From contig JBJONI010000357.1 of the NCBI GenBank assembly GCA_046051915.1, forward strand, positions 1 to 43,249: a stretch of 43,249 nt of DNA, in the 5' to 3' direction. Source of the stretch: Pseudomonadota bacterium (GTDB lineage: Bacteria > Myxococcota_A > UBA796 > GCA-2862545). Both the position numbers and the translations under genes were made by a program. The notes under the pieces were generated by a model that was not told where the DNA came from, made no database searches, and was given only the letters and a program-made list of their open reading frames with translations. Below are positions 2,727 to 43,249 of the stretch, piece after piece (positions within the stretch are counted from its first letter, which is position 1; each line of letters begins with the position of its first letter).

Positions 2727-3542
2727 ATGACGGCCGACGTCTGGTTCCGTGCCACCTTCGCGCTCGTCGGCGCCTGCCTCGGGAGCTTCTTGGAGCTCGT
2801 GTGGTCGCGCTCCGCACAGGGCCGAAGCGTCGTCCACCCTCCGAGCGCCTGCGACGCCTGCGGGGTCGGGTTGCGGCCCATCGACAACGTGCCGGTGCTC
2901 AGTTGGCTCTGGCTCCGCGGCCGCTGCCGCGCCTGCGGGGCGGCCATCCCCGCCGCGCACCCGTTGATCGAGGCCACCTCCGGCGGACTCGCGTGGCTGA
3001 TCGCCGCGCGCTTCGTGCCAGGCCCGGCGAGCCTGCGACTGCCCGAGGTCGCGACGACCGTGTACATCACGCTGTTCGTCGGCCTGTGGTTCTGGGCCGC
3101 GCTCTCCGACGTACGGTGGCGCATCATCCCGGATGGGGCTTCGTACCTCGCCGTACCGGTCGCGGTGGCGGGACAAGTCGCGCTCGAAGCGCTCGGCGCC
3201 GCCGACCACGTCGTCGGATGGAAGCTCTCGGTGTTGGGCGCCGCGGCTGGATGGCTCGGGCTCGGAGGGTTGAGTTTGGCCTGGCGTTTGGTCCGTGGCC
3301 GCGAGGGCCTCGGATGGGGCGACGTCCGCCTCGCCGCACTCATCGGGGCGGTGTTGGGCCCGTGGCCCGGCCTCTGGGGGACGCTCGGCATCGCGAGCGC
3401 GCTCGGCGCCATCGCTGGCCTCGTCTCGCTCCTCGTCCTGCGACGCTCGTCGTACCTGCCCCTCGGGCCGTTTCTCGCCGTCTCGGCGACCGGCATCGCG
3501 ATCTACGGCCAAGCGATCTCGCGCTGGTGGTACGGCGTCTAG
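2727..3542 (+). CDS. pilD: Prepilin peptidase / N-methyltransferase (peptidase A24, PilD family)
   Basis: The sequence reads GACLGSFLELVWSR...PPSACDACGVGLRPIDNVPVLSWLWLRGRCRACGAAIPAAHPLIE, which is the characteristic Cys-pair region and DiS_P_DiS N-terminus. A multi-TM peptidase body follows, with GWGDVRLAALIG. Confidence 0.9.
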   Translation: MTADVWFRATFALVGACLGSFLELVWSRSAQGRSVVHPPSACDACGVGLRPIDNVPVLSWLWLRGRCRACGAAIPAAHPLIEATSGGLAWLIAARFVPGPASLRLPEVATTVYITLFVGLWFWAALSDVRWRIIPDGASYLAVPVAVAGQVALEALGAADHVVGWKLSVLGAAAGWLGLGGLSLAWRLVRGREGLGWGDVRLAALIGAVLGPWPGLWGTLGIASALGAIAGLVSLLVLRRSSYLPLGPFLAVSATGIAIYGQAISRWWYGV

Positions 3543-3546
3543 GGGG

Positions 3547-3978
3547 TCAGCCGACCCGGACGTCGTCGAACGCGACCTCGATCTCTTCCACCGCCAGCTC
3601 GCTTCCACCCGACGAGAGCGCCGGGCCCTGCCACCGAACCGGCCACATCCCGACGAGGTGGAACCGCTCCACGGCGGTGCCGTCGCCGTCGTAGACCGTG
3701 ATCGCCCCTGAGCTGCGCTGACGGGTGTCGCCGGCACGACAACGCTCCCGCCAATCGAGCAGCCCGTGCGTCACTTGGGTCGCCAGACGCAGCGTGACGT
3801 TCTCCCATCCTGCCGGGGTGGTGCGCCGATGCAAGTAGCCGTTGACGCCGCCTTCCTCGATCTCAAAAACGTCGCTCCGCGTGCGAATCCCACTACAACC
3901 GTGGAAGTGCGCAACCTCGACGCCGTCGACCTCAAGCGCGAACCGGTGACCACCAGCGGGATCCTGCCGCAGTTGCAT
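3547..3978 (-). CDS. Contractile-tail tube protein (T4 gp19-like 'conserved phage tail region protein')
   Basis: The protein MQLRQDPAGGHRFALEVDGVEVAHFHGCSGIRTRSDVFEIEEGGVNGYLHRR..WENVTLRLA....LLDWRE......RSSGAITVYDGDGTAVERFHLVGMWPVRWQGPALSSGGSELAVEEIEVAFDDV matches the tube-family pattern FxVEIDGxxxxxFxECSGLxxExEVxExxEGGxN...NITLKRG...WxW...WPxKWxGPxLxA..NExAIExLEL. An RBS (GGGAGGGGG) lies 6 nt upstream of the ATG. Confidence 0.85.
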   Translation of the reverse strand: MQLRQDPAGGHRFALEVDGVEVAHFHGCSGIRTRSDVFEIEEGGVNGYLHRRTTPAGWENVTLRLATQVTHGLLDWRERCRAGDTRQRSSGAITVYDGDGTAVERFHLVGMWPVRWQGPALSSGGSELAVEEIEVAFDDVRVG

Positions 3979-4000
3979 CGGCTACCCCCTCCCGCGAAGC

Positions 4001-4843
4001 CTACCACACCCCACGGCCGTCGTCGGCGTCCTGCGGGCCCATCGGCGACGGTCCGGCTCCCGACGGGGCGAGGGAGAGATCGAGTGGACGACCGTCGTCG
4101 CGTCGCGCAGCCGCAGCCGCAGCTTCGTCGGCGGTGACAGGATCGGCCGACGTCTGCACACGGTTGCGCAGGAACGCTTCGACGATCCGCATGGCGGCCC
4201 GTCCCTCCGGCGTGTCGGTGCGCGTCGCCCAGTAATCGAGCAACGCCGCCCGACGAGCGGCGGGTGTCGGCAGCGACTCACGGCCGAGCCCGATGCCGTC
4301 GACCCACAGGTCGACCAAGCGCGCCTCCAGCGCTGCCAGCGCCTCCGCGGTCGCACGCGACGCAATCGCCTCGCGCCATGCCACCACCTGCGGCTCGATC
4401 GCGCCACGCAGCGCGTCTTGCACGGCACGTTGTTTGCCTCGCTCCACCATCCCGAACTGACCCGACGACGCCTCGCTCGGGCCGGAATCGGCGAACGGTG
4501 AGCGACCGTTGGGGATCGACGCGGCGAGGGCGGGGTCGAAGTGGATCGCAGGGTTGGCAAAATCCAAGCGGCCGTCAGGGTGAAGCAGCAAGCGTCCCAT
4601 CCAGCTCTCGGGCGGGATGACGACGATCGCGCCATCGCGTCGGGCGCGATCGCGCGTCGTCCACCCTTGTCCCGCAAGGCTCTCCACCAACGCCGCGCGC
4701 GCCGCCGCGATCCGCGGGCCGCCGACGATGAGCATCTCGGTGACCGGGGCCCCTTCCTCGACCGGCTCCGGGGGTGGGAGCGGCGTCCAGCCCACGGGCG
4801 GCTCCTCGGCCCAAGCGAGCGACACGAACCAAGCGAGGATCAC
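4001..4843 (-). CDS. Hypothetical protein (short hydrophobic N-terminus, Ala/Arg-rich helical C-terminal half)
   Basis: This is the in-frame part of ORF 4001..4912. GTG 4843 overlaps the thioesterase TGA (a GTGA junction) and is preceded by GGAGGG. Third-codon positions are GC-rich. I recognise no family. Confidence 0.55.
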   Translation of the reverse strand: MILAWFVSLAWAEEPPVGWTPLPPPEPVEEGAPVTEMLIVGGPRIAAARAALVESLAGQGWTTRDRARRDGAIVVIPPESWMGRLLLHPDGRLDFANPAIHFDPALAASIPNGRSPFADSGPSEASSGQFGMVERGKQRAVQDALRGAIEPQVVAWREAIASRATAEALAALEARLVDLWVDGIGLGRESLPTPAARRAALLDYWATRTDTPEGRAAMRIVEAFLRNRVQTSADPVTADEAAAAAARRDDGRPLDLSLAPSGAGPSPMGPQDADDGRGVW

Positions 4844-5259
4844 GCGCCCTCCTGCGGCAGCCAAGGCGCCAATTGACGTCGAAACTCCTCCGACCACGGG
4901 GCGGCGAGCCACGTCTCGGGATCGGCACGCACCACCGTCCGGGTCCCTCGGGCGCAGTCCACATCCGCGTCCATCGGCAGCATCCGAAAGCCAAAGGTCA
5001 AGGAGGAACGTCCAAGGCGCTCGATCGCCACCCGTACGCGAACCTGTTGTGGGCCCCGCACAGGACGCTCATAGGTCACCTCGTTCGCCCGAACGAGATG
5101 GAAGCGATCGGGATCGTCGTTGAAGCGACCCAAGCCCAGATGCCACCAGAAGGATCCCAGGGTGCGCTCGAAGAGCAACAGGTAGCGCGCGTTGTGGAGG
5201 ATCCCGAAGGGATCGAGATCGTCGAAGTACACGCCATGGACCTGCTCATGAAACCGCAT
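4840..5259 (-). CDS. Acyl-CoA thioesterase, 4HBT/YbgC-like hotdog fold
   Basis: The sequence MRFHEQVHGVYFDDLDPFGILHNARYLLLFERTLGSFW...HLVRANEVTYERPVRGPQQVRVRVAIERLGRSSLTFGF follows the hotdog thioesterase pattern (D..G.v.n..Y..yfe.a). I chose internal ATG 5259 because the longer extension is Arg-rich. Confidence 0.75.
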   Translation of the reverse strand: MRFHEQVHGVYFDDLDPFGILHNARYLLLFERTLGSFWWHLGLGRFNDDPDRFHLVRANEVTYERPVRGPQQVRVRVAIERLGRSSLTFGFRMLPMDADVDCARGTRTVVRADPETWLAAPWSEEFRRQLAPWLPQEGA

Positions 5260-5363
5260 CGCGCACCTCGGGTCGGGCCGGGGCAATCCCCGGACCTGCG
5301 CGCGCTGACGCGCCGCGAAGAAGCGGTTAACCGCGCGCGTTCCCCCGCACCCTGAGGCCACCC

Positions 5364-6425
5364 GTGCGCGTTTCGTCCATTTTCCGCCCTGCCCTTCTCC
5401 CCCTCACGATCGCGCTCGGCCTCGCAGCCTGCGGTGGCGGTGCCTCGAGCACCCCCGGTCAGGTCGCCATGACCGGCGAGACCGTCGTGACGATCGACGG
5501 CAAGCCCGTCAGCCAAGACTACCTCGACGCGATCACGGCCAACATGCCGAAGAAGCAGCTCGAGATGATGAAGTCGAGCGGCCAGTACAAGGACTTCGTC
5601 GAGCAGATGGCGCTGGGCCAGCTGCTGTACGAGAAGGCCCTCGCCGAGGGCATGCAGAACGACGCGAAGACCCAGATCCGCCTCGCCGTCGCGGCGCGCG
5701 ACGCGTTGGCGAAGGAGTACATCGCGCGCAAGGCTGCCGAAGCCGTCACCGAGGACGCGGTGAAGAAGGCGTATGACGACCGCAAGGTGCAATACGCCAA
5801 GCCGCAGGTCAAGGTCCGGCACCTCCTTGTGGCCGACGAGGCCGCAGCCCAGGCCGCCCTCGCGCGGATCCAGGGCGGCGAGGACTTCGCCAAGGTCGTC
5901 GGCGAGGTCAGCACCGACCGAGGCACCACCACCAAGGGCGGCGACCTGGGCTGGATGTCGGAGGGGCAACTCGACAAGGCCCTGACGGACGCCGCGTTCG
6001 CCGCCGCCAAGGACGCCGTCATCGGCCCCATCCAAACGCGGTTCGGCTGGCACGTCGCCCAAGTCGTCGACAAGCGCGACGCGACCCCGATCGAAGACGT
6101 GCGTGAGCAGCTCGAGCAGGGGATCAAGCAAGAGACCATGAAGAAGATCTTCGAAGAGCTCAAGGCCAACGCGAAGATCGAATGGACGAATCCGCCCCCC
6201 GAGCCCGATCCCGCCGCGCGTCCCGCGGGCCCCGGCGGTCTCGGCGGCATGATGCCGCGCCCGTCGATGAACGGCGGTCCGATCAAGCTCGAGGCGAAGG
6301 GTGGACCGGGCGCTCCCGGCGCACCGGCTGGGGCACCGACGGCACCGCCCGCCGCTGCACCGACGGCACCGCCCGCCGCTGCGCCGACGGCACCGCCCGC
6401 CGCACCGCCTGCACCGGCGAAGTGA
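5364..6425 (+). CDS. Lipoprotein peptidyl-prolyl cis-trans isomerase (parvulin/PpiC domain, SurA/PrsA-like)
   Basis: A lipobox signal is present (LTIALGLAAC, GTG start). The parvulin core reads VKVRHLLVADEAAAQAALARIQGGEDFAKVVGEVSTD..GGDLGWMSEGQLDKALTDAAF......GPIQTRFGWHVAQVVDKR. The C-terminal tail is Pro/Ala-rich. Confidence 0.85.
   Translation: MRVSSIFRPALLPLTIALGLAACGGGASSTPGQVAMTGETVVTIDGKPVSQDYLDAITANMPKKQLEMMKSSGQYKDFVEQMALGQLLYEKALAEGMQNDAKTQIRLAVAARDALAKEYIARKAAEAVTEDAVKKAYDDRKVQYAKPQVKVRHLLVADEAAAQAALARIQGGEDFAKVVGEVSTDRGTTTKGGDLGWMSEGQLDKALTDAAFAAAKDAVIGPIQTRFGWHVAQVVDKRDATPIEDVREQLEQGIKQETMKKIFEELKANAKIEWTNPPPEPDPAARPAGPGGLGGMMPRPSMNGGPIKLEAKGGPGAPGAPAGAPTAPPAAAPTAPPAAAPTAPPAAPPAPAK
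6333..6404. repeat. 24-bp in-frame tandem repeat, 3 copies
   Basis: The unit gcaccgacggcaccgcccgccgct occurs at 6333-6356 and 6357-6380, with a near-identical third copy at 6381-6404. It encodes APTAPPAA x3 in the PPIase tail. Confidence 0.9.
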
Positions 6426-33650: not shown

Positions 33651-34598
33651 TCAGGCCTTGCCGGGATCGACGGTCGCCTGAAGCTCTTCGACCGCGCGGT
33701 CCAACGCGGGCAGGCAACGCTCAAACTGCTCGAACCACCGCTGCCATTCGCGGTCGTCGTGGTGCGGCTCCGGTCGCCGATCGTCGAGCGCCCGCACCAA
33801 CTCCGCGACTTGCTCGAACCGATCGGTCAACGCGCGCACGGCGTCGGCATCGTAAAACCCGCGCGCATGGCCGACGAGAGAGCCCGCAGCCCGGTACAGC
33901 ACGCGGTCCGACGTACCCTCCTCCAACAGCACGAACTCTGCGGCAACCACCGCAGCGTAGAAGCCGAACGACGCCACGTCCAACTCCTGAAGGACGGCGG
34001 TGCGGTAGACCAGCGTGAGCGCGCGACGGCTGCGATCGACGAAGCGCAGGACCATCGGCTTGAGCGCGGACTCTGCCGCCCGCGCCACCCGTCCCGCGCG
34101 CGGCACCGGCACCGCCAGCTTCGCCATCCGTCCCAAGCGCACCCGAAGGTGGGCGAGCGCGACGCCATCCTCGATCTCCTCGTCCGCCGGCACCAGACGC
34201 GGCTGGATGCGTTCCACCGCCCGCGCGCTCTGCGGCTGGTCGCTCGTGTCAAACACGGGTCGCAGCGCCAGCGGATCGAGTGGCTCGTCGCGCACGAGCC
34301 ACAGCGTGTAGTCCCCATCGGTGCCTTGCTCTTCCAGGGGCACCACGCGATCGGACGCCAGCCGGATCCCTTGACCACGCGCGGTCAGCCCAAACCCGGC
34401 ACGAACACGCGCCTCGTAGCGGTCGAGCGTCTGCACGAGCTCGACGCCGAGCCCTTGCACGACACCATGGCCGTGGAGGAAGTGGGCGTGACGCTCCAGC
34501 GCGCGGCGATGGAAACTCTGCTCGACGATGAGGTCAGCAGCCGTCAAGCACAAGCCCTCAAACGGGCGGAGGCGAACGAGCGGTTCGTCGTGGGCCAT
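33651..34598 (-). CDS. Hypothetical protein (315 aa), CIS-operon member of unknown function
   Basis: ATG 34598 overlaps the upstream TGA (TGATG junction). The sequence is MAHDEPLVRLRPFEGLCLTAADLIVEQSFHRRALERHAHFLHGHGVVQGLGVE... followed by a helical C-terminal half. Third-codon positions are GC-rich. I can name no family. Confidence 0.7.
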   Translation of the reverse strand: MAHDEPLVRLRPFEGLCLTAADLIVEQSFHRRALERHAHFLHGHGVVQGLGVELVQTLDRYEARVRAGFGLTARGQGIRLASDRVVPLEEQGTDGDYTLWLVRDEPLDPLALRPVFDTSDQPQSARAVERIQPRLVPADEEIEDGVALAHLRVRLGRMAKLAVPVPRAGRVARAAESALKPMVLRFVDRSRRALTLVYRTAVLQELDVASFGFYAAVVAAEFVLLEEGTSDRVLYRAAGSLVGHARGFYDADAVRALTDRFEQVAELVRALDDRRPEPHHDDREWQRWFEQFERCLPALDRAVEELQATVDPGKA

Positions 34599-35722
34599 CA
34601 AACACTCTCATCAAAGCGGAGGGTAAACGCGACATGGGCCGGCCGTTCGTGGCTGACGACGTCGGCGATGCGGCGCAGGACATGCTCCGCGCGCTCGCCG
34701 AACCGGCCGCGAAACGCATCCGCGGGCTCGAGGAGCAGCACGAAGAAGTCGGTGTCGGCGTGGGCCTCTGGGGCGACCAGGAAGCACGCTTGTGCCTCGC
34801 GGCGGTGGTATCGGCCCACGACGTCCTCACCGCCGACGAGGTGGGCTCGCCCCAACGCCATCGGCGCCGGCCGCTGCCGCTCGCGCGCGCGCACGGGCGC
34901 CGTCGTGAGGACTTCGACCATCTCCTCGACGCCCACCCGGGTGCCGCGGGTTCGGTACAGGCGGATCGCGCGACGCACCAGCTCGCGCTGCTGATGAAGG
35001 GGCAAGCTCGCATCGAGGTCGAACCCCACCCAACTCGCGAGCCACGGCAGAAACTTCGGGGCGCACGCCAACGGATCGGTGAGGTCGGCCAGCCCGTCGA
35101 GGGTGTCGGTGACCGTCGTGTGCTGGTGCTGCAGCAAGAACAGGAAGCGGCGCAGCGGGTGGGCGTCGACGTCACGCTCCTCGGAGCGGCGGTCGAGCGC
35201 CGTGCCGCCAACCCGCGCGAGCTGCGTCGAGGTGACCGTCTCGACCTCACGGATCGCGACGGGCCCCTCACCAGAGAACAACGCCGGGAGAAACCTAAGG
35301 TATCCGCGAACAGGAACAACCAGAACGAGCCGATCTTGGGCTTCTAGCGCGCCAAGACGGCCCGCCGGCCCGTCGACCACGGGCCGCATGCGCACCAGGG
35401 CGTCAGGGACGAAGAAGCTCGCAGGCTGGCCGTTCGCGAGCTCGCGCTCCGCACGAATCACGCTCACCTGACCGCTCGCGGCGTGATGCACTTCCACGGC
35501 GCGTACGACACCCGGTCGCTCCCCACGCCCGAGCTCCACGAGCCGGTAGCTCACGGGGTTGCCCACCGCGCGCTGCAAGTGCAGGCGCGCGGAACGCACC
35601 GAGAGCCGCGCCGTCACGACCGCCGCGAGGCGCGCCAGATCCCCCTGCCCGACCGCGAGCGCGGTGCGTTCCGAGGTGGGCGACGGCGAGGCCGGCCCGA
35701 CGAGCATGCGCCGGCGCTTCAC
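34598..35722 (-). CDS. Baseplate protein, P2 gpI-like 'phage tail protein' domain (Afp12-like position)
   Basis: The sequence YLRFLPALFSGEG.......HPLRRFLFLLQHQHTTVTDTLDGLADLTDPLACAPKFLPWLASWVGFDLDASLPLHQQRELVRRAIRLYRTRGTRVGVEEMVEVL...ERPAHVAFTLRF fits the family pattern (YLPxiY...FLxRFL...fDPxxAPxxFLxWLAxWxG...rRxLi..a..lyr.RGT..Gl...kPAHT). GTG 35722 overlaps the Baseplate-J TGA (GTGA). The alternative start is ATG 35707. Confidence 0.8.
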   Translation of the reverse strand: MKRRRMLVGPASPSPTSERTALAVGQGDLARLAAVVTARLSVRSARLHLQRAVGNPVSYRLVELGRGERPGVVRAVEVHHAASGQVSVIRAERELANGQPASFFVPDALVRMRPVVDGPAGRLGALEAQDRLVLVVPVRGYLRFLPALFSGEGPVAIREVETVTSTQLARVGGTALDRRSEERDVDAHPLRRFLFLLQHQHTTVTDTLDGLADLTDPLACAPKFLPWLASWVGFDLDASLPLHQQRELVRRAIRLYRTRGTRVGVEEMVEVLTTAPVRARERQRPAPMALGRAHLVGGEDVVGRYHRREAQACFLVAPEAHADTDFFVLLLEPADAFRGRFGERAEHVLRRIADVVSHERPAHVAFTLRFDESV

Positions 35723-38700
35723 GCGCGTTCCTCCGCCCATCGGATCCGAACCTCGCGAACGAGGAACAGGTCGACACCAGGCAGCGAGAGGATCGCATCT
35801 CCCGGAGAGGTCTCCCAGCCCGGCGGCGGCACGCGTCCTCCTTGCAGGGTCGGAGCGACGGGGAACAGGCGAACGTCCACCACGTGCCGGACCTCTGGCA
35901 CCGCGAGCACGAGACGACCAAAGTCGGCCGCGAACACCGTCGCGCCGAAGGGCCAACCCTCCCCGTCTAGACCACCCGCCCACGGGTCGAGGAACGTCCT
36001 GACCCAAGCCTGTGCCGCTTCGCGCGCCGCCACCACGTCCGCGTGGGCGCGCAGCCGCACGTCGAGGCTGACATCGACCGCCTGGAACGTCGCGAGGCGG
36101 ACCTTGGGCCGCACATTGACGAGGCAGCGCCGCTGGACGTAGTGCTGGACATGGTCCAACAACCCGGCGGAGAGGAACGGATCCGGCAGCGCCTCATGGG
36201 CGCGCTTACGCGGAAGGATCACGACCTCGATGCCCCCGTCCGCGCCCACCGACCCGACGCACGCGGCGCGTGCAACCTCCGGACTCGCCTCGGTCGCGAT
36301 CACCTCGAAGTCCTTGCGGGTCACCGCCCGGTCGCGGCTGGTGAGCACCGACGGCGCGCGCCGCACGATCTCGTCGACCGTCTCGGCGTCGCGTCCCCCC
36401 ACGGCGGGCAGGAGGTTGATCACGTCGACGACATCGGCAAAGCCTTCACTGAGCGCGATCTCCGCGGCAGCTACGTTACCCGCCGCTCCCGGGATCACGT
36501 GGTACGACGCCACGGTCACGTTGAACGTCCCGATCGGGAGGATCCTGCCACGGATGCCGTTGCCGAAGGTGAGCGTACCGTCGACGGCGTCGACGACGAA
36601 GACCCGGTCGTCCTTGCTGGCGGCCGCGAAGCTGTTCCCGGGCGCGACGCGCCAAGCACGAGGCTGCGCCTCGCCCTCATCAACCCAGACCGCCAGATCG
36701 GTCGTCCGGTCACGGGCCACGTCGGACGCGTCCGGCAGCCAAAGCGGCTGGTGGCGCAGGTGGACGACTTGCCCTGGGATCCCCTCGCCGCTGAACTTTT
36801 CCATCCGGAAGCCGTGGAGATTTCGGGCTTCCACGGTGTTCGGCAGCAGATGGGTCACGGGCGGCAGCACAGGGAACCGCCCCTCGGCGACCCGGAACAA
36901 CCCGCGCAACCACACGCCCTCTGGCGCCGGTCGCATCGGCTGGTCGAGCGAGAAGGTGAGGCTGCCGCTGCGATCCATCCGCCAGGCGCCTGCGCTCTCA
37001 TCCGCCGTGCCGCTGGTCAGCCGTGTCCAACGCCGAACCCCTGGGGTCGGCTCCTGCAGCAGCTCCCAATGGACCGAGAACCCCTGCGGGAGCCACGTCT
37101 CGCCGGCCTGCAGAAACATCGTGTGCAGGCGGCTCCCGACAGGCAGGGGCCGGTCAAAACGCAGGTACAGCGCGCGGTGGCCGCCGTCAGGATCCTCGAT
37201 CGCGATCTGGGGGTCGAAGGGAAGCGTGGAGGCGACATCGCCGTCGAGGCGCCGCAGCAAGCGCGTGAAGCGACGGTTCGCGGGGCGGTGCTCCACCGCA
37301 ACGACGCGGGTTCCGGGGAGCGGCTCGTCGTAGACCTGCGCGCCCGGGATGCGTTCGAGGCTGATCCGTGCGTCATGGACGCGAAGCGTCACGGCCGAGG
37401 GCGGGGCGGTGGGCTCGGTCTGGTACGACAGCGCCGCGCGGGTGAGCTCGATGCGCAGCCAGCAGGTGGTACGTTGGCCGACCTCGGTCGGCGCGATGCC
37501 GGGGAGGTGTTCGGCAGGGTCGAGCGCCAGACGCAGCCGCCGACGCTCCGCGAGCGGTGCGCCGTCCGGGTCGAGATCGGCGAACGTGAAGCGCGCGAGA
37601 TCGAGGTCGCCGACCTGCACCGTCTGCCAGCCCGCAGCCGTCCGGTACGTCAGTTGCAAGTGGTAGTCGCCGTCGGGCTCCGCGACGATCTCCCCGTCCC
37701 GCTCGAACGCGATGTCGAGTTCGATCAGCACGGGCTCCCGGCGGCGGTTCGCTAGGAGGTCACTGCCGAGGAAGAACTTCATACCGAGCAACGCCGGCAG
37801 CGTCGGCAGCGGTTGGAACGGGGTCACCGGCAGCTCGCCGGCGAGGATCTCGCTCGCAGCGGAGACCTCGGGTCCCCACGCGAGGAACACATCGGCCGGA
37901 CGCTGCCACACGGCGTCGATCCGCAGCGCCGGAAGGACCCCGAGCAAATCCACGCTCTCGCGACGCTCCGCCCGCAGGTTGAACCCGTCCGCCGCGAGAT
38001 CGAGGAGCGGCCCCGTGAGCACGAACGACGCGCCGACCTGTTCCACCGCGCCGGCTGGCACCGGCTCCCAGGTGTCGCCGCGCCGCCACGACCAAGCGTA
38101 GTGCGGGAAGACGCCCTCCCGCCCCAGCCGCAGTCCGTGGTCGACCAGCGTAAAGCGAAGCGTCCAGCCCGGCCGAAGCGGCGGCACATTGGGGACGAAG
38201 AACTCGAGCGTACGACCCACGGCACGAACCTGCCAGCTCGTGATCTCGTGCTCCTCGCCGCCGCGATCGTCGCGCCACGTGATCGTCAGCTCGCCCTCTT
38301 GGCCCATCAGGTCCGCGAGCCAACGCTCCATGTCGAGTCGGCCCCGAATCCATCCCTGCTGCGGCAGGTCGTCCGGCCAGGGGATCGCGTCGTCCACCGC
38401 CCCCAGCTGCGTGATCGGCGCCATCCACGGGAGTTCCGCTGCAAGCAGCGGCTCTGGCAGGCCCATCACCTCGCCGGGCGGCTCGGGGAAGGGCGCGATC
38501 GGCGTCCAGCCTTCGCCGTCCAAGCGGGGATACTCCCAAGCAAACAACCCCGCGACGGGGAGGCCGACCGCGCCGTCGTCGCCGACCTCGAGGACCGACC
38601 GAAGCCGAAGGGCGCCACCCGGGCCCTCGCCGGCGTCGACCCGTCCCATCCGCAGGAAGTCGTCGTGGCGCAGGTAGATCCAATGATCCGGGGTGTAGCT

Positions 38701-39246
38701 TTGCGGACCGTCCCGAGAAGGATCGAGGTCGAGCAGCGACAGCCCGCGTTCGCCAAAGCGGAGGGCACCGCTCCCCTCGTCGAACACGTCCCACGCGATC
38801 TCGCGCGACATCGGCTGGGGCCCGGCGGCGACGGCGACAATTCGGTCGACGCGCGCCCCATGCACGCTCACCGGCTCGGCGGTGAGGAAGTGCAGCGCAT
38901 CCCCGCCTTGACGTTGCCGCGTCGAGCAACGCTCCGAGGCGGGAAGTTCGACGACGGCCGTGTCGGGTTGGCGAAGCGAGAAGGTCAGCGGGACGACCGC
39001 AGGCCGCGCGTTGCGCCGCTCCTCGCCAATGAAGTTCAGGAAGTGGACGTAGGTCTTATCGGGCACCCGATTCAGACGGTACAACGTCATTTCCGTCATC
39101 CAAGCGAACAACTGGACCAGCGTCATGCCCGGGTCGCTGTCGCCCAGGTGCGTCCACTCGGGACAATACTGGGGGATCAGCGCGCGAGCCTCGCGCACCA
39201 GGTCGTCGTAGCTGCGGTCGTCGAGGCGTGGAGGCTGAATCGGCAT
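35719..39246 (-). CDS. Baseplate J-like 'putative baseplate assembly protein' (Afp11/gp6-like), 1175 aa
   Basis: MPIQPPRLDDRSYDDLVREARALIPQYCPEWTHLGDSDPGMTLVQLFAWMTEMTLYRLNRVPDKTYVHFLNFIGEE is the hallmark N-terminus of this family. The C-terminal Baseplate_J region reads ...VTVASYHVIPGAAGNVAAAEIALSEGFADVVDVINLLPAVGGRDAETVDEI. Confidence 0.9.
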   Translation of the reverse strand: MPIQPPRLDDRSYDDLVREARALIPQYCPEWTHLGDSDPGMTLVQLFAWMTEMTLYRLNRVPDKTYVHFLNFIGEERRNARPAVVPLTFSLRQPDTAVVELPASERCSTRQRQGGDALHFLTAEPVSVHGARVDRIVAVAAGPQPMSREIAWDVFDEGSGALRFGERGLSLLDLDPSRDGPQSYTPDHWIYLRHDDFLRMGRVDAGEGPGGALRLRSVLEVGDDGAVGLPVAGLFAWEYPRLDGEGWTPIAPFPEPPGEVMGLPEPLLAAELPWMAPITQLGAVDDAIPWPDDLPQQGWIRGRLDMERWLADLMGQEGELTITWRDDRGGEEHEITSWQVRAVGRTLEFFVPNVPPLRPGWTLRFTLVDHGLRLGREGVFPHYAWSWRRGDTWEPVPAGAVEQVGASFVLTGPLLDLAADGFNLRAERRESVDLLGVLPALRIDAVWQRPADVFLAWGPEVSAASEILAGELPVTPFQPLPTLPALLGMKFFLGSDLLANRRREPVLIELDIAFERDGEIVAEPDGDYHLQLTYRTAAGWQTVQVGDLDLARFTFADLDPDGAPLAERRRLRLALDPAEHLPGIAPTEVGQRTTCWLRIELTRAALSYQTEPTAPPSAVTLRVHDARISLERIPGAQVYDEPLPGTRVVAVEHRPANRRFTRLLRRLDGDVASTLPFDPQIAIEDPDGGHRALYLRFDRPLPVGSRLHTMFLQAGETWLPQGFSVHWELLQEPTPGVRRWTRLTSGTADESAGAWRMDRSGSLTFSLDQPMRPAPEGVWLRGLFRVAEGRFPVLPPVTHLLPNTVEARNLHGFRMEKFSGEGIPGQVVHLRHQPLWLPDASDVARDRTTDLAVWVDEGEAQPRAWRVAPGNSFAAASKDDRVFVVDAVDGTLTFGNGIRGRILPIGTFNVTVASYHVIPGAAGNVAAAEIALSEGFADVVDVINLLPAVGGRDAETVDEIVRRAPSVLTSRDRAVTRKDFEVIATEASPEVARAACVGSVGADGGIEVVILPRKRAHEALPDPFLSAGLLDHVQHYVQRRCLVNVRPKVRLATFQAVDVSLDVRLRAHADVVAAREAAQAWVRTFLDPWAGGLDGEGWPFGATVFAADFGRLVLAVPEVRHVVDVRLFPVAPTLQGGRVPPPGWETSPGDAILSLPGVDLFLVREVRIRWAEERA

Positions 39247-39249
39247 ACG

Positions 39250-39636
39250 TCACCCGCCCGTCGAGACGTCGAGGTTCATGACCTGTTCCTGGTTCGACGA
39301 TCGAACCCGGTAGCGCACGTCGACCGCGATGCGGCCCTGAGCCGTGGCCTCCGCTTTGACGTCGACCACATCGATCCGTGGCTCCCAGCGCTCGAGGGCG
39401 GACCGAACATGGTAGGCCACCAAGCTCGCGTTCGCCGACGTGTTCGGGGTGTACAACAGCTCATGGATGCGGCATCCAAAGTCAGGCATCTTCTGCCGTT
39501 CCCCGGGACGCGTCCCGAGGATGATCGACATCGATTCCCGGATGTTGTCCTCCGCAGAGGACAACGCCAGCCCGCCCGTCGCGGGGTCGAAGGCGAAGGG
39601 AAACGCCACGCCACGACCCAAGAAGTCTCGGTTCAC
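39250..39636 (-). CDS. GPW/gp25-family baseplate wedge protein (Afp9-like)
   Basis: MNRDFLGRGVAFPFAFDPATGGLALSSAEDNIRESMSIILGTRPGERQKMPDFGCRIHELLYTPN......VRSALERWEPRIDVVDV fits the gp25 pattern (iLxTxxGERxMxPxFGxxl..l.F.p...WEPRi). The start is GTG. The stop lies 3 nt before the Baseplate-J ATG. Confidence 0.9.
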   Translation of the reverse strand: MNRDFLGRGVAFPFAFDPATGGLALSSAEDNIRESMSIILGTRPGERQKMPDFGCRIHELLYTPNTSANASLVAYHVRSALERWEPRIDVVDVKAEATAQGRIAVDVRYRVRSSNQEQVMNLDVSTGG

Positions 39637-39745
39637 GATCGCCTTCGTGGCCCGCCGTGCTCACCGCTCGGATCGCGCCACCCCGGTTGTACCACAGGCG
39701 GCCACCTCCGGCGCAAGCGACGCGCACCGAGGCGCCCCGGATCGC

Positions 39746-40774
39746 TCAGGTCGGCATCGTGTTCGAGCAGAACTGGAACTCGGTGGCGTAGCCGCGGCGG
39801 ATCTCGAAGAAGTGACGGCTCCCGACGACGTACACCTCGGGGTTGAACCCCGTGGGGTGCCCCTGGAAGCGCACCTTGGTGCCGGCATGGATCTCCGCGT
39901 TCCCGTCGACGCGCGCGCTCCCTCGCAGGAAGTTCCGCGCGGCTCGATTCAGCTCCGCCGCGGCGATCTCCTTCGCCGACCCCTGCGTGTGGTGCGTGAC
40001 GTCGGTCACGTGGCTCGTGCCCTGCCAGATCTGCGACGCGACCGACACAGCACTCCGGCCCCCGCCGATCTTCTCGACGTCGCCATCGCCAGCCGTGCCC
40101 TCGACCTTGTCCTTTTGGCCGTAGTCCCACCCGGTCGTCTTGATCTCCGCGGGCATCCCGACCGCGTTCATCTCGTAGTCGAGGTCCTCGAGCGCATCGG
40201 TGCTGACCACGGTGCTTCGGCCGCCAAACTGGGGTTTCACAAAGTCAATCCTCCCCTCGTTCGCCATCAGCAAGTAGCCGTTGCGACCGGCGAGCCGCTT
40301 CATGAACTCGAGATCGGACTCGTTGCGCTGCGTGATGTGATCGTTCTTTTGGGCCGTGCTGTCGATCTTGCCGACCTTCAGCCCAGCGCGGCCGAGCACC
40401 TTGCGGACGATGTCGGCGTCGGTCATCTTCTCGTACGTCTCGGTACGACGGCTGGCGCTGGCCTTGATCAACGGGTCCATCGCCATGACGGTCATCACCT
40501 CACGGCCTTGCTTGTAGCTGTGTCGCATGCCCGTCACGACGCCGACGAACATCTTGCGCTGCGTCTGGCCGACGGAGACTTCGACGTCCGACCCGATCTG
40601 GATCGACGACCAAGCGCCATGGTCGAGGTTGAGGCAGATGCGGGCCACGCCGATCACGTCGACGTGGTCCTCGACCATGAGGTACTCGAGGCCGGCGTTC
40701 TCGGCTTGGGAGTACGTCTTACCGCCCACGGTCGCGGTGAACCGGTAGGCCTCGTGGCGGGGAGGCGCGCTCAT
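39746..40774 (-). CDS. Phage late control gene D (gpD)/VgrG-N-like baseplate hub, 342 aa, no spike domain
   Basis: The sequence ...LEYLMVEDHVDVIGVARICL.......VEVSVGQTQRKMFVGVVTGMRHSY.......MDPL......RRTETYEKMTDADIVRKVLGRAGLKVG.IDST......ITQRNESDLEFMKRLAGRNGYLLMANEG...F.....GNAEIHAGTKVRFQGHPTGFNPEVYVVGSRHFFEIRRGYATEFQF is typical of Phage_GPD. The ATG overlaps the upstream TGA (ATGA). Confidence 0.9.
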   Translation of the reverse strand: MSAPPRHEAYRFTATVGGKTYSQAENAGLEYLMVEDHVDVIGVARICLNLDHGAWSSIQIGSDVEVSVGQTQRKMFVGVVTGMRHSYKQGREVMTVMAMDPLIKASASRRTETYEKMTDADIVRKVLGRAGLKVGKIDSTAQKNDHITQRNESDLEFMKRLAGRNGYLLMANEGRIDFVKPQFGGRSTVVSTDALEDLDYEMNAVGMPAEIKTTGWDYGQKDKVEGTAGDGDVEKIGGGRSAVSVASQIWQGTSHVTDVTHHTQGSAKEIAAAELNRAARNFLRGSARVDGNAEIHAGTKVRFQGHPTGFNPEVYVVGSRHFFEIRRGYATEFQFCSNTMPT

Positions 40775-43101
40775 TCGGCCTCCTCAGGCTCGCCACCGCG
40801 ACGCCCCGAGAGCGCGTCGAGCAGGTCGGACCCGACCCGCGGCAGGTTGCTTGCGCCTGTCGCGGTGTCACGATGAACCGGGCGTGGCGCACCGGCTCCC
40901 GAAACGGGCGCGGGGACGGGCGCTGCCGAAGGCCGAACCCGCTCGGCCGCGCCGGTCGAGGACACGGCACGCTCCGGTGCGACCGGCGCCGATGGCCCCG
41001 TCGGCCCCACCGCGGGGCTGCCACCAGCGCCGGTGGAGGGCGATGCGCTGGAAGGCGCCGACGGTGCAGCCGCCGCGGCACCACTCGGACCCGAGGCGCC
41101 GGCCCCGGGACCCGCGGAACCGGCACCTGAACCGGTCGGGCCCGACGGGCCGGCAGAGCCCGCGCCAACGCCTTGCCCGCCCGACGCACCCGAAGGCGCA
41201 CCACCGCGCGGCCCGCGCGGGCCCGGGCCGGACGCCGGTGCGCCGGGGCCAGCGGTCGCGGCCGCAGGGCCCGAGGTCGCCGCCGCGCCGCCCGCGGGAG
41301 ACGCGGGGCCGACGCCCGAAGTCGCCGGACCGCCCTGGGCGGCGCCACCGCCCGGTGAAGCCGTCGCTCCGGGACCCGTCGGAGTGGCGCCAGCGCCGGC
41401 TCCGATGCCCGACGTCGCGCCGTCCGCGGGTGCCGTCCCGGCAGCCGTGGTGTCGCCTGTCGGTGCCGACGCCCCTGCCGGAGGCGTCCCCGACCCTCCG
41501 CGGGGAGCGCCTGGCCCAGACGCCGCGCCGGCACCCGGACCCACGCCCATCCCACCGGACGCTGGCGACCCGCCAGCCGGCCCGGAACCCGTCGACGCAC
41601 CGGCGCCGCCACGTGGCGTCGGTCCGCCCGTGGAGGCACCCGGCCCCGGCACAGCCGGCTCGACGGCGTCGCCCGCTGCCGCGCCGCCACCGCCCGTGCC
41701 GGCACCGCCGCCAGCAGGACCACCCGTACCTGCGCCAGCGCCAGCCGGACCACCCGTACCAGCACCCCCGCCAGCTGGACCGCCTGCGCCGCCGCCACGA
41801 GGACCACCGCCGCCCGTCGGCGCGCCCGTACCGGCACCGCCGCCAGCAGGACCGCCTGCCCCGCCGCCGCCGCGAGGACCGCCAGGCGTGCCGCCAGCAG
41901 GGCCGCCCGCGCCACCGCCGGCGCCGCGAGGACCACCGCCGCCGGCACCGCCCGCGCCACCGCCGCCGCGAGGACCGCCGTCGCCGTCACCGCCGCCGCG
42001 AGGACCACCGCCGCCGGCACCACCCGCGCCACCGCCGCCGCGAGGACCGCCGCCGCCGAAGTTGGGGCGCTCTGGGCGACCCCCGCCGTCGTCGTCGTCG
42101 CCAAAAACGTTGTCGATCGCTCCTTCCAACCGGTGGACGTCGCGCACGACGGAGCCGACGGCGCCCGTCACCGCGTCGACAGTCCGCGCCACGCCGACGG
42201 CGACGTCGCGCACGTCGTCCGCGACGTCCAGCACGAAGTCAGCCGCCTCGCCGATCGCCCCGCTGATCGCATCCGCGACGCTGTTGAGCTGCGCGCCGAG
42301 CGCGCCGTCGTCGGCGAAGATGCCACCCAGACCCGGTGCGAGGCGTCCGAGCTCTTGGAACGGGTCCACAGCCCCGCTCGCCAGCCATGCCGCCGTGTTG
42401 GCCGCGCGCCGCGCGCCCTCCAGCACGTCCGCCACCGCCGACGAGCCCGGGATCACCAGCTGCATGCCCGGCACGACCGACAGCGGGTCGAGGATGCCGT
42501 TCGCGCGGGCGATATCCTGGAAAGGCACGCCCGCGGCTGCGGCGAGCGACGACAACGTTTGGCCGGCGCCGAGCGTCATCGTCTGCGTGGCGGAGAGCGC
42601 CGAGGCGGACAGCCCGCTGAGTGCGCCGCCACCAAGCTTCATCGCCGCGTTTGTGTTCGCGGCGTTGTGCTCCATCAGTTGCACGGCGACCTTCGCGCGG
42701 ACGGGCGAGCCGTCGGGCGCGAACATCAGGTAGCTGACGTCCAGCTGCTTCAGGATGCAGGTGAAGTCGAACCCACCCCACGAGAAGCGCAAGTACGGCG
42801 GGCGGGTGTAGGTCTTGCCGTCCTTGACGACCTTGACCGTCTGCTCCAACAGGTTGCGGAACCCGTTGACGGACCCCGACACCGTCCCGCCCTCACGCGT
42901 GGAGTCGAAGAAGAACTCCATGCTCAAGTTCGCGGGCTGCCCCTTCTCGTACGTCAGCGCCGGGTGCGCCACGTTGCCCTTCGGCTTCCAGTCCGCTCCA
43001 TCGGAGAGCTGGAACTCCTTGGGGTTAAACTGGACCTTCAGCGATGAGCCGGAGTCCAGGTTCGTGAACACCGCCTTCTCGTTACCACCAGAAATCGCCA
43101 T
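40771..43101 (-). CDS. CIS tube-initiator-like protein with a LysM domain (Afp7-like) carrying a ~415-aa Gly/Pro/Ala/Ser-rich low-complexity extension
   Basis: ATG 43101 has GGGAGG 5 nt upstream. The N-terminus is MAISGGNEKAVFTNLDSGSSLKVQFNPKEFQLS...LSMEFFFDST...PPYLRFSWGGFDFTCILKQLDVSYLMFAPDGSPVRAKVAVQL (tube-like N-domain). The LysM domain reads TMTLGAGQTLSSLAAAAGVPFQDIARANGILDPLSVVPGMQLVIP. From residue ~334 to ~750 the sequence is G/P/A/S/T-rich. The alternative start is GTG 43167. Confidence 0.85.
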   Translation of the reverse strand: MAISGGNEKAVFTNLDSGSSLKVQFNPKEFQLSDGADWKPKGNVAHPALTYEKGQPANLSMEFFFDSTREGGTVSGSVNGFRNLLEQTVKVVKDGKTYTRPPYLRFSWGGFDFTCILKQLDVSYLMFAPDGSPVRAKVAVQLMEHNAANTNAAMKLGGGALSGLSASALSATQTMTLGAGQTLSSLAAAAGVPFQDIARANGILDPLSVVPGMQLVIPGSSAVADVLEGARRAANTAAWLASGAVDPFQELGRLAPGLGGIFADDGALGAQLNSVADAISGAIGEAADFVLDVADDVRDVAVGVARTVDAVTGAVGSVVRDVHRLEGAIDNVFGDDDDGGGRPERPNFGGGGPRGGGGAGGAGGGGPRGGGDGDGGPRGGGGAGGAGGGGPRGAGGGAGGPAGGTPGGPRGGGGAGGPAGGGAGTGAPTGGGGPRGGGAGGPAGGGAGTGGPAGAGAGTGGPAGGGAGTGGGGAAAGDAVEPAVPGPGASTGGPTPRGGAGASTGSGPAGGSPASGGMGVGPGAGAASGPGAPRGGSGTPPAGASAPTGDTTAAGTAPADGATSGIGAGAGATPTGPGATASPGGGAAQGGPATSGVGPASPAGGAAATSGPAAATAGPGAPASGPGPRGPRGGAPSGASGGQGVGAGSAGPSGPTGSGAGSAGPGAGASGPSGAAAAAPSAPSSASPSTGAGGSPAVGPTGPSAPVAPERAVSSTGAAERVRPSAAPVPAPVSGAGAPRPVHRDTATGASNLPRVGSDLLDALSGRRGGEPEEAE
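40854..42102. repeat. Low-complexity GC-rich coding tract (Gly/Pro/Ala codons, with local ~63-bp periodicity around 41930-42060)
   Basis: GGPRGGGGAGGAGGGGPRGGGDGDGGPRGGGGAGGAGGGGPRG-type units are present. All six frames are open here, which produces ORFs 40719..42104, 40851..42266 and 41033..42733 in the track. Confidence 0.8.
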
Positions 43102-43249
43102 AGCGACCTCCCTCTCCACGCTCACGAGAGCGCTCAAGCTCCCGCTGCACGGCTTCAAGGACTTCACGCTGGAGGGAGGCCAGGGTCACCCCGTCCGCTC
43201 CCTCGACCTGCCCGGCGCGCCCCTGCGAGGCCGCGCCCACCTTCTCGTC
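43082..43249 (-). CDS. C-terminal end of an upstream CIS-operon gene (partial, runs off the right edge)
   Basis: The reverse frame from 43249 reads DEKVGAASQGRAGQVEGADGVTLASLQREVLEAVQRELERSRERGEGGRYGDFWW*. GC3 is high over the first ~27 codons. The TAA at 43082-43084 overlaps the LysM-gene start by 20 nt. Function is unknown (tape-measure or Afp6-position protein?). Confidence 0.35.
   Translation of the reverse strand, partial: DEKVGAASQGRAGQVEGADGVTLASLQREVLEAVQRELERSRERGEGGRYGDFWW

Follow-up and report, generated by a model that had tools for sequence, protein, structure and literature searches.

The DNA considered here is a window of 43,249 nucleotides with a GC content of about 70%, which makes up the whole of contig C357 (JBJONI010000357.1 in GCA_046051915.1) of G000, a fragmented metagenome-assembled genome (MAG; 495 contigs, 71% complete) from the UBA796 lineage of Myxococcota. 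The window carries half of a contractile injection system (CIS) locus and, well away from it and among housekeeping genes, a gene for a 143-residue tube-family protein that we call P0001. By sequence, P0001 is a paralogue of the protein that forms the single-ring initiator layer of the tube, here called the tube2 type, and not of the bulk tube. We think it somewhat better than an even bet, with a probability of roughly 0.55, that P0001 is an alternative subunit of the CIS initiator ring, encoded in trans and maintained. This reading is favored because the protein is of the ring subtype, six copies would be enough for a particle, the lineage of the gene tracks the machine, and in one genus the corresponding gene appears to be the sole supplier of the layer. 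From these features we infer that P0001 enters the CIS and alters its function.

The initial annotation of this DNA took P0001 for a gp19-like tube protein, and profile searches bear this out. P0001 matches PF06841 with an E value of 1.4e-24 and 86.8 bits (cut-off 28.2) over residues 11-140 of 143, and matches TIGR02241 with 79.6 bits (cut-off 62.4). The NCBIfam subtype profiles favor CIS5_fam (58.6 bits) over CIS1_fam (27.8 bits), though both scores fall far below the equivalog cut-offs; for CIS5_fam that cut-off, applied here to P0001, is 260 bits. A profile of P0001 and its relatives (alignment A2) finds its best match in the Protein Data Bank (PDB) in 9gtp_a at 7e-25, against 3.3e-12 for the bulk tube 8bl4_v. 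The 9gtp_a protein is 32% identical to P0001 and is present as six chains in a Streptomyces CIS baseplate entry, a count that suggests it is the Cis1b initiator layer. In that system, CIS-Sc, the initiator layers Cis1b and Cis7 connect the tube with the spike (PMC12237407), a role that falls to Cis5 and Cis7 in the Anabaena tCIS (PMC8894136).

Structure and phylogeny point the same way. An AlphaFold2 model of P0001 (pLDDT 83, pTM 0.74) has the fold of a tube protein, a beta-sandwich with a single helix and a long hairpin, and is matched by Foldseek at probability 1.00 to 34 CIS, phage-tube and Hcp chains, with best TM scores of 0.58-0.65. The three top fold matches, at TM of about 0.65, are the AlgoCIS baseplate chain 7aeb_Y, Pvc5 (6j0n_n) and Afp5 (6rao_F), followed by bulk tubes and 9gtp_a. 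In our trees the bulk-tube type, tube1, splits from everything else with a support of 100, and P0001 groups with tube2; its identity to the tube2 of its own genome is 45%, and to tube1 31%. Net charge and isoelectric point fail to separate the orphan clade from the resident tube proteins, all of which are acidic. Among the options first put forward for P0001, which were a specialised tube or cargo-adaptor subunit, a decoy and a remnant, a specialised tube subunit fits best, refined to a third copy of tube-initiator type.

The machine to which such a subunit would belong is encoded in pieces across the assembly. G000 holds three PF06841 genes, one on contig C184, one on C284, and P0001. On C184 the order is a Pvc16 cap, a 594-aa sheath and tube1, and on C284 it is DUF6760, a 391-aa sheath (sheath2), tube2 and a large protein (over 1286 aa). 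Both sheath-tube blocks are contiguous in a single locus (L037) of the sister species G001, and the layout pvc16-sheath1-tube1-DUF6760-sheath2-tube2-big-Cis7-gpD-gp25-J-I is constant across the order. The expectation that CIS loci keep their tube paralogues beside the sheath is therefore correct here for tube1 and tube2, each of which has a sheath for a neighbor, and P0001 is an extra. The further expectation that these tube genes would lie just beyond position 43249 was not borne out, as the window ends there as a contig and the genes sit on C184 and C284.

The features of the window that bear on P0001 are as follows.

3547..3978, minus strand: P0001, the orphan tube-family gene; 143 aa, ATG start; third paralogue, of tube2 / Cis5-Cis1b-Afp5 type.
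3979..4000, minus strand: spacer of 22 nt between the middle gene and the tube gene, holding the ribosome-binding-like run GGGAGGGGG; read directly.
4001..4843, minus strand: middle gene ("mid"); 280 aa from a GTG start; secreted protein, family unassigned.
4840..5259, minus strand: hotdog-fold thioesterase ("thio"; 4HBT_2, YbgC/FadM-like); 139 aa; Pfam 4HBT_2.
2727..3542, plus strand: prepilin peptidase PilD; Pfam A24_N_bact and Peptidase_A24; convergent flank and synteny anchor.
5364..6425, plus strand: peptidyl-prolyl isomerase (PPIase, rotamase); Pfam Rotamase_2/3; divergent flank and second synteny anchor.
34598..43167, minus strand: CIS baseplate half, with P2_I-like, Baseplate_J, gp25, gpD hub and Cis7-type LysM tube initiator (Pfam).

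P0001 is detached from the CIS locus, as had been noted, and has housekeeping neighbors on both sides. It lies 30.6 kb from the last baseplate gene, between pilD, whose convergent stop is 4 nt from its own, and a housekeeping string; beyond it come the PPIase and then an aminotransferase, rpmG, rpsD and other housekeeping genes. Reading the sequence directly, we recovered the three-gene arrangement just as first described: the middle-gene TAG stop falls 22 nt before the P0001 ATG, the Shine-Dalgarno-like run GGGAGGGGG lies 8-12 nt upstream of that ATG, and the TGA stop of the thioesterase gene overlaps the GTG start of the middle gene (GTGA). A longer middle-gene frame reaching to 4912 is possible, and relatives give no support for that start. 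Independent gene calls on metagenome contigs with an identical tube protein yield the same genes, of 139, 280 and 143 aa, and all three minus-strand frames have coding-type GC content by codon position. Scans of 3300-5600 for promoter and terminator consensus sequences returned nothing, as expected at 70% GC. In the baseplate half, the Cis7-type initiator (CIS_tube+LysM) probably starts at 43101. The initial annotation also made something of the shared strand and the roughly 30 kb between P0001 and the baseplate genes. Both hold within the window, but in relatives the distance is 280 kb to 3 Mb, or the genes lie on separate contigs or replicons, and we have dropped the link because it is not conserved.

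The position of P0001 among housekeeping genes is itself conserved. Using tblastn with marker proteins, we mapped this region across family f1, a UBA796-like family of uncultured MAGs labelled Myxococcota or Deltaproteobacteria. The slot can be written PPIase / MPG-thioesterase-mid-(OPT)-tube / pilD, and a tube2-type gene occupies it in many f1 genera. G001 has pilD / tube-mid-thio / PPIase. As an anchor pilD also serves in G014, G007, G011 and G018 and on metagenome contigs. Four genomes (G022, G074, G065 and G066) have tube-mid-thio(-MPG) with the PPIase a few kilobases further on and no pilD match in the stretches examined. An OPT transporter gene stands between mid and tube in G014, G013 and two metagenome lineages (61-63% identity). 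The stretches of G011 and G018 contain pilD, thio and mid, with thio-mid 1.3-2.7 kb from the tube gene; in G020 and G010 thio-mid lies 3-4 kb away and the stretch gives no pilD match; and in G007, which lacks thio-mid, the order is pilD..tube..PPIase. What the window shows as a three-gene string is one local state of the longer MPG-thio-mid-(OPT)-tube string. We found slot copies in f1 alone, the order's other six families yielding none. A tree constrained to unite all slot copies, fused (see below) and short, in one clade is not rejected (p-AU 0.695, log-likelihood +13 relative to the free quick tree), so a single origin is tenable. The clade of P0001 itself consists entirely of short copies, from G000, G001, G014, G005 and metagenome clusters.

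The distribution of slot copies follows that of the machine. In three f1 genera without this CIS, g2 (three genomes), g3 and g9, the slot tube gene is missing while its neighbors are kept. All three lack orthologous sheath1 and sheath2 genes, g3 and g9 having only a different sheath type. Conversely, we found no genome with a slot copy and no CIS genes, fragmentary assemblies aside.

A second tie between slot and machine comes from loci in which tube2 is missing. In every other CIS locus examined in the order tube2 follows sheath2, but in G022 (L074, G022:C16:108000-119000) the large gene comes 210 nt after the 391-aa sheath2 and is succeeded by Cis7, gpD and gp25, with no tube2. Apart from tube1, the slot copy is the one PF06841 gene in both G022 and G074. 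Most simply read, the slot gene of this genus, g22, supplies the initiator ring in trans. Resident tube2 is also missing from two further loci, in G013 (L075, G013:C46) and G066 (L161, G066:C12), which like L074 are otherwise complete; the picture there is less clear-cut, since a second, OmpA-fused copy is present in G013 and more CIS loci occur in g16.

Other slot copies carry a second domain. Across nine genera, 20 f1 genomes have a slot-type gene whose product, 280-335 aa long and devoid of a signal peptide, joins a tube2-type domain through a Pro-rich linker to an OmpA_C domain; one such protein matches PF06841 at 5.6e-27 and PF00691 at 4.4e-9. Fused examples include the following.

L024:7524-8426, minus strand: tube-OmpA fusion.
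L020:7989-8858, plus strand: tube-OmpA fusion.
L047:6554-7492, minus strand: tube-OmpA fusion.

About 97 metagenomic clusters share this architecture, and where they are named at all it is only as 'phage tail protein' or 'hypothetical protein'. We found the fusion in none of the 105 genomes from the order's remaining six families, and a scan of 185,579 species gave no example outside this group. The P0001 protein has no passenger and ends with its tube domain, and a search of G000 for a split-off OmpA partner returned only ordinary large OmpA-family outer-membrane proteins, at 30-43% identity. Since the quick trees do not resolve the backbone among tube2-type groups, the OmpA domain may have been either gained or lost. 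A side observation concerns the passenger itself. In most fused members the Asp of the GHTD peptidoglycan-binding motif is replaced by Cys or Ser (consensus EGHTCTxGS, alignment A1), which makes canonical binding of diaminopimelate by the fused domain doubtful.

P0001 evolves under strong constraint. Its ratio of nonsynonymous to synonymous substitution rates (dN/dS) against G001 is 0.047 (dS 0.71), compared with 0.017 for tube2 and 0.025 for sheath2 among the CIS genes and with 0.011 for the thioesterase, 0.13 for pilD and 0.15 for the middle gene among its neighbors. Against a metagenome relative of 87% identity the value is 0.10, and within the genus-level group it ranges over 0.047-0.12. 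Some 15 metagenomic protein clusters stand at 50-96% identity to P0001, nearly all of them 141-146 aa long, and the frame is intact in every relative examined. The clade also has conserved motifs of its own, with RERCRxGD, which reads RERCRAGD in P0001, in place of RDxYLQDxF and WPVRWxGP in place of the WPVSWEGP of other tube2-type proteins.

These observations can be drawn together in a model. Six tube2-type subunits would make up a single layer that joins the Cis7/LysM initiator to the first bulk-tube ring. In the ancestor of f1, a single duplication may have left a copy at the end of a housekeeping string, facing pilD, where it would have been vertically inherited while still serving the machine in trans. 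Six copies are needed per particle, and a weakly expressed gene outside the sheath-tube operon could supply that number. Slot copies might then have followed three routes: becoming the sole initiator-ring gene (in g22, and probably in g13 and g16), gaining a Pro-rich linker and an OmpA-like passenger (in nine genera), or, as in G000, staying short and diverging beside an intact resident tube2. In the last case some or all particles would receive an alternative initiator ring with altered properties.

Several of our observations weigh against this model for P0001. The resident tube2 of G000 is intact and more conserved than P0001 (99% identical to that of G001), so the machine does not need P0001. 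P0001 has changed motifs that are near-invariant in tube2 proteins (WPVSWEGP to WPVRWQGP, ECSG to GCSG, and a shortened loop), and the stem of its clade is long, at 0.55 substitutions per site; together these could equally mean a new job independent of the CIS. P0001 is co-directional with genes that lack any CIS link, and g22, the cleanest case of supply in trans, belongs to another clade of slot copies than that of P0001. The co-occurrence of slot copy and machine is counted over related genomes and incomplete MAGs. Two further observations are in its favor, if weakly. Contigs from three RNA-library runs match the tube gene with zero differences (X18, X20 and X21; 3581-3748, 3514-3684 and 3771-3921), but these runs are available as contigs only, which may include carried-over DNA and from which no level, strand or co-transcription can be read. 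The other is that a 1:1 co-fold of P0001 (A2) with the N-domain of the window's Cis7 (A3) reached an ipSAE of 0.32, where the best of three controls reached 0.01, in runs agreeing in at least 77% of contacts and with partner pLDDT of at least 71. In calibration, 58 of 80 solved complexes and 2 of 110 mismatches attained this mark, and those at an ipSAE of 0.60 or less were just 7 of the 80 solved complexes together with both passing mismatches. The predicted contact is therefore a weak pass and weak support, and it shows likeness at most, because complexes between Cis7- and Cis5-type proteins have already been solved.

Some of the points against the model would be accommodated if the slot copy of the G000 clade had left the machine and been exapted, forming Hcp-like rings or acting as a scaffold or chaperone in a housekeeping process linked to its operon neighbors. 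The long stem and the clade-specific changes to motifs that are invariant elsewhere in the tube2 type fit such a history, as does the retention of a resident tube2 that makes a second initiator unnecessary; P0001 is the last gene of a housekeeping string, and the strong selection on it implies some function. Yet slot copies were found only alongside this CIS, CIS-less genera have the string without them, the slot copy of g22 is the only candidate for its initiator-ring gene, and the fold and acidic charge are unchanged. The supposed partners are also inconstant, with OPT inserted in some genomes, MPG lost in others and thio-mid absent from G007. We regard exaptation as the most serious alternative to an alternative ring subunit, though an unlikely one.

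A second possibility is that P0001 acts on the machine without becoming part of it, as a regulatory decoy that binds Cis7 or tube1 and blocks or times tube polymerisation as an assembly brake. A divergent paralogue alongside a functional resident copy is what such a brake might look like, a separate, non-CIS transcription unit would permit independent regulation, and the weak co-fold signal with the Cis7 N-domain (ipSAE 0.32 against 0.01) is compatible with it. We know of no decoy tube in a CIS or a type VI secretion system (T6SS). A literature search found no precedent either, and sister slot clades act as structural suppliers (g22) or carry passengers, which fits a structural role. We therefore consider a decoy improbable.

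The neighbors of P0001 bear on a third alternative, in which the tube protein is a dedicated carrier for the adjacent 280-aa product, much as an orphan hcp gene may sit beside its effector. The shared strand and 22-nt spacing suggest such a pairing, and the analogy rests on general knowledge of T6SS. The middle gene has no Pfam or NCBIfam match, and a search against protein structures gave only unrelated models at TM below 0.35. Its product and all orthologues examined begin with a Sec signal peptide, and a protein exported by Sec would make an unlikely cargo or partner for a cytoplasmic tube protein. Members of the family occur in 143 of 154 genomes from the order and in all seven families, including genera and families without a slot tube gene or a CIS, usually in several copies; in the closest outgroup relatives an OPT transporter gene stands between the two genes. 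A carrier of this kind is thus very improbable, and with it falls the idea of P0001 as a cargo adaptor for its neighbor. As to the third gene, the thioesterase matches 4HBT_2 at 1.8e-13 and 51.5 bits (cut-off 25.5) but stays below subfamily cut-offs (TIGR00051, 38.8 against 68.7; thio_ybgC, 34.8 against 141), and its domain match places it in the hotdog superfamily. Two f1 genomes that lack the CIS, G023 and G009, have MPG-thio-mid in a string that ends without a tube gene, and in CIS-less G003 mid is followed by OPT, again with no tube gene. The thio-mid pair predates the tube gene and does not depend on it, and the "operon", put forward as a dedicated three-gene unit, is a local juxtaposition. 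Apart from this argument, we note that the middle-protein family is characterised by a length of about 270-290 aa and a conserved C-terminal block, YWATRTDTPEGR...VQTS..PVTA.E.AAAEARR.DGR.LDL, and often has 2-7 copies per genome, the second copy in G000 being at C80:3291-4031.

A remnant was also entertained at first. That P0001 is the decaying leftover of a CIS or prophage since lost or rearranged is scarcely credible: the gene is detached from its machine and the GC content at third codon positions (GC3) is lower in the three minus-strand genes than in the flanks, but the frame is intact in all relatives at a conserved length (in about 15 clusters) and a dN/dS of 0.047-0.12, the tube fold is confidently predicted (pLDDT 83), and the position is kept across genera. 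The GC3 difference, 0.78-0.80 in the three genes against 0.87-0.90 in pilD and the PPIase, persists despite their long residence at the slot.

Returning to P0001 as a putative alternative subunit of the initiator ring, its closest known counterparts are Cis5 of the Anabaena tCIS (PMC8894136), Cis1b of CIS-Sc (PDB 9gtp, PMC12237407), Afp5, Pvc5 and the AlgoCIS protein 7aeb_Y, which it resembles in fold and length. The canonical position of this layer, after the sheath, is held in G000 by tube2, the paralogue of P0001. P0001 differs in lying outside the CIS locus, in being a second copy of its subtype in the genome, in scoring far under the CIS5_fam cut-off and in its clade-specific motifs.

The T6SS offers a different comparison. 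Orphan hcp genes are scattered away from the main T6SS cluster, and 'evolved' Hcp proteins carry C-terminal extension domains. The slot genes share with these the encoding of a tube paralogue away from its machine and, in orthologues from sister genera, a C-terminal passenger, here OmpA-like, that follows a linker. The machines differ, however, with a T6SS on one side and an extracellular CIS (eCIS) or CIS-Sc-like system on the other. Hcp is moreover the bulk tube, whereas the initiator ring has six copies per particle, and the slot passenger is OmpA-like with no recognised toxin, the G000 copy having no passenger at all.

An eCIS-like cluster with a highly transcribed PF06841 tube gene has been described from uncultured UBA796 Myxococcota, a lineage of abundant, transcriptionally active, uncultured aquatic predators (PMC11937823). 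This appears to be the same machine in the same lineage, as L058 and L156 share its pvc16-sheath-tube layout. That paper covers the clustered tube gene and does not treat a detached paralogue, OmpA fusions or tube2-less clusters, and our literature search found no paper on detached or OmpA-fused CIS initiator or tube paralogues or on clusters that lack tube2.

Annotation and re-engineering of CIS and eCIS take it for granted that a single cluster encodes every structural part. The layer adjacent to the spike is here encoded elsewhere, in some genera apparently only there, and cluster-based surveys would call such machines incomplete. To judge by the OmpA-fused orthologues, the initiator ring may be able to carry passengers; if so, it would offer a new loading site for natural or engineered eCIS cargo. 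More tentatively, the family may treat its initiator ring as an exchangeable module encoded outside the machine, with the housekeeping slot giving Cis5-type subunits either bare or with a passenger. The spike-adjacent ring might then be a site for cargo or anchoring, the system could be an eCIS counterpart of evolved Hcp and VgrG proteins, and the P0001 clade would be a tail-less variant that re-specifies the particle. We hold this wider view as possible, with less confidence than the role of P0001 in the ring.

Some minor observations concern the CIS loci themselves. In every locus a protein of 1300-1800 aa without a Pfam match lies between tube2 and Cis7, in tape-measure position; it is found at L005:2-3859 (minus strand; G000:C284), with counterparts at 1461-6845 of L074 and 1074-6266 of L075, and is far bigger than known eCIS tape measures. 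Tandem, near-identical duplicates of tube1 are present in L068 (G020:C1:4064661-4065780) and L064 (G007:C178:3377-4395), those of G020 lying away from the main CIS locus, which sits on contig 2. Many metagenomic tube2-type proteins (P0122, P0125, P0127, P0134 and P0137) have a basic N-terminal extension of about 100-130 aa with the motif LPGSFSxYPKGxKPxSxAPHGQRT. Long open frames upstream of the CIS-resident tube2 in other families of the order (L045, L048, L049 and L058) may be the same extension.

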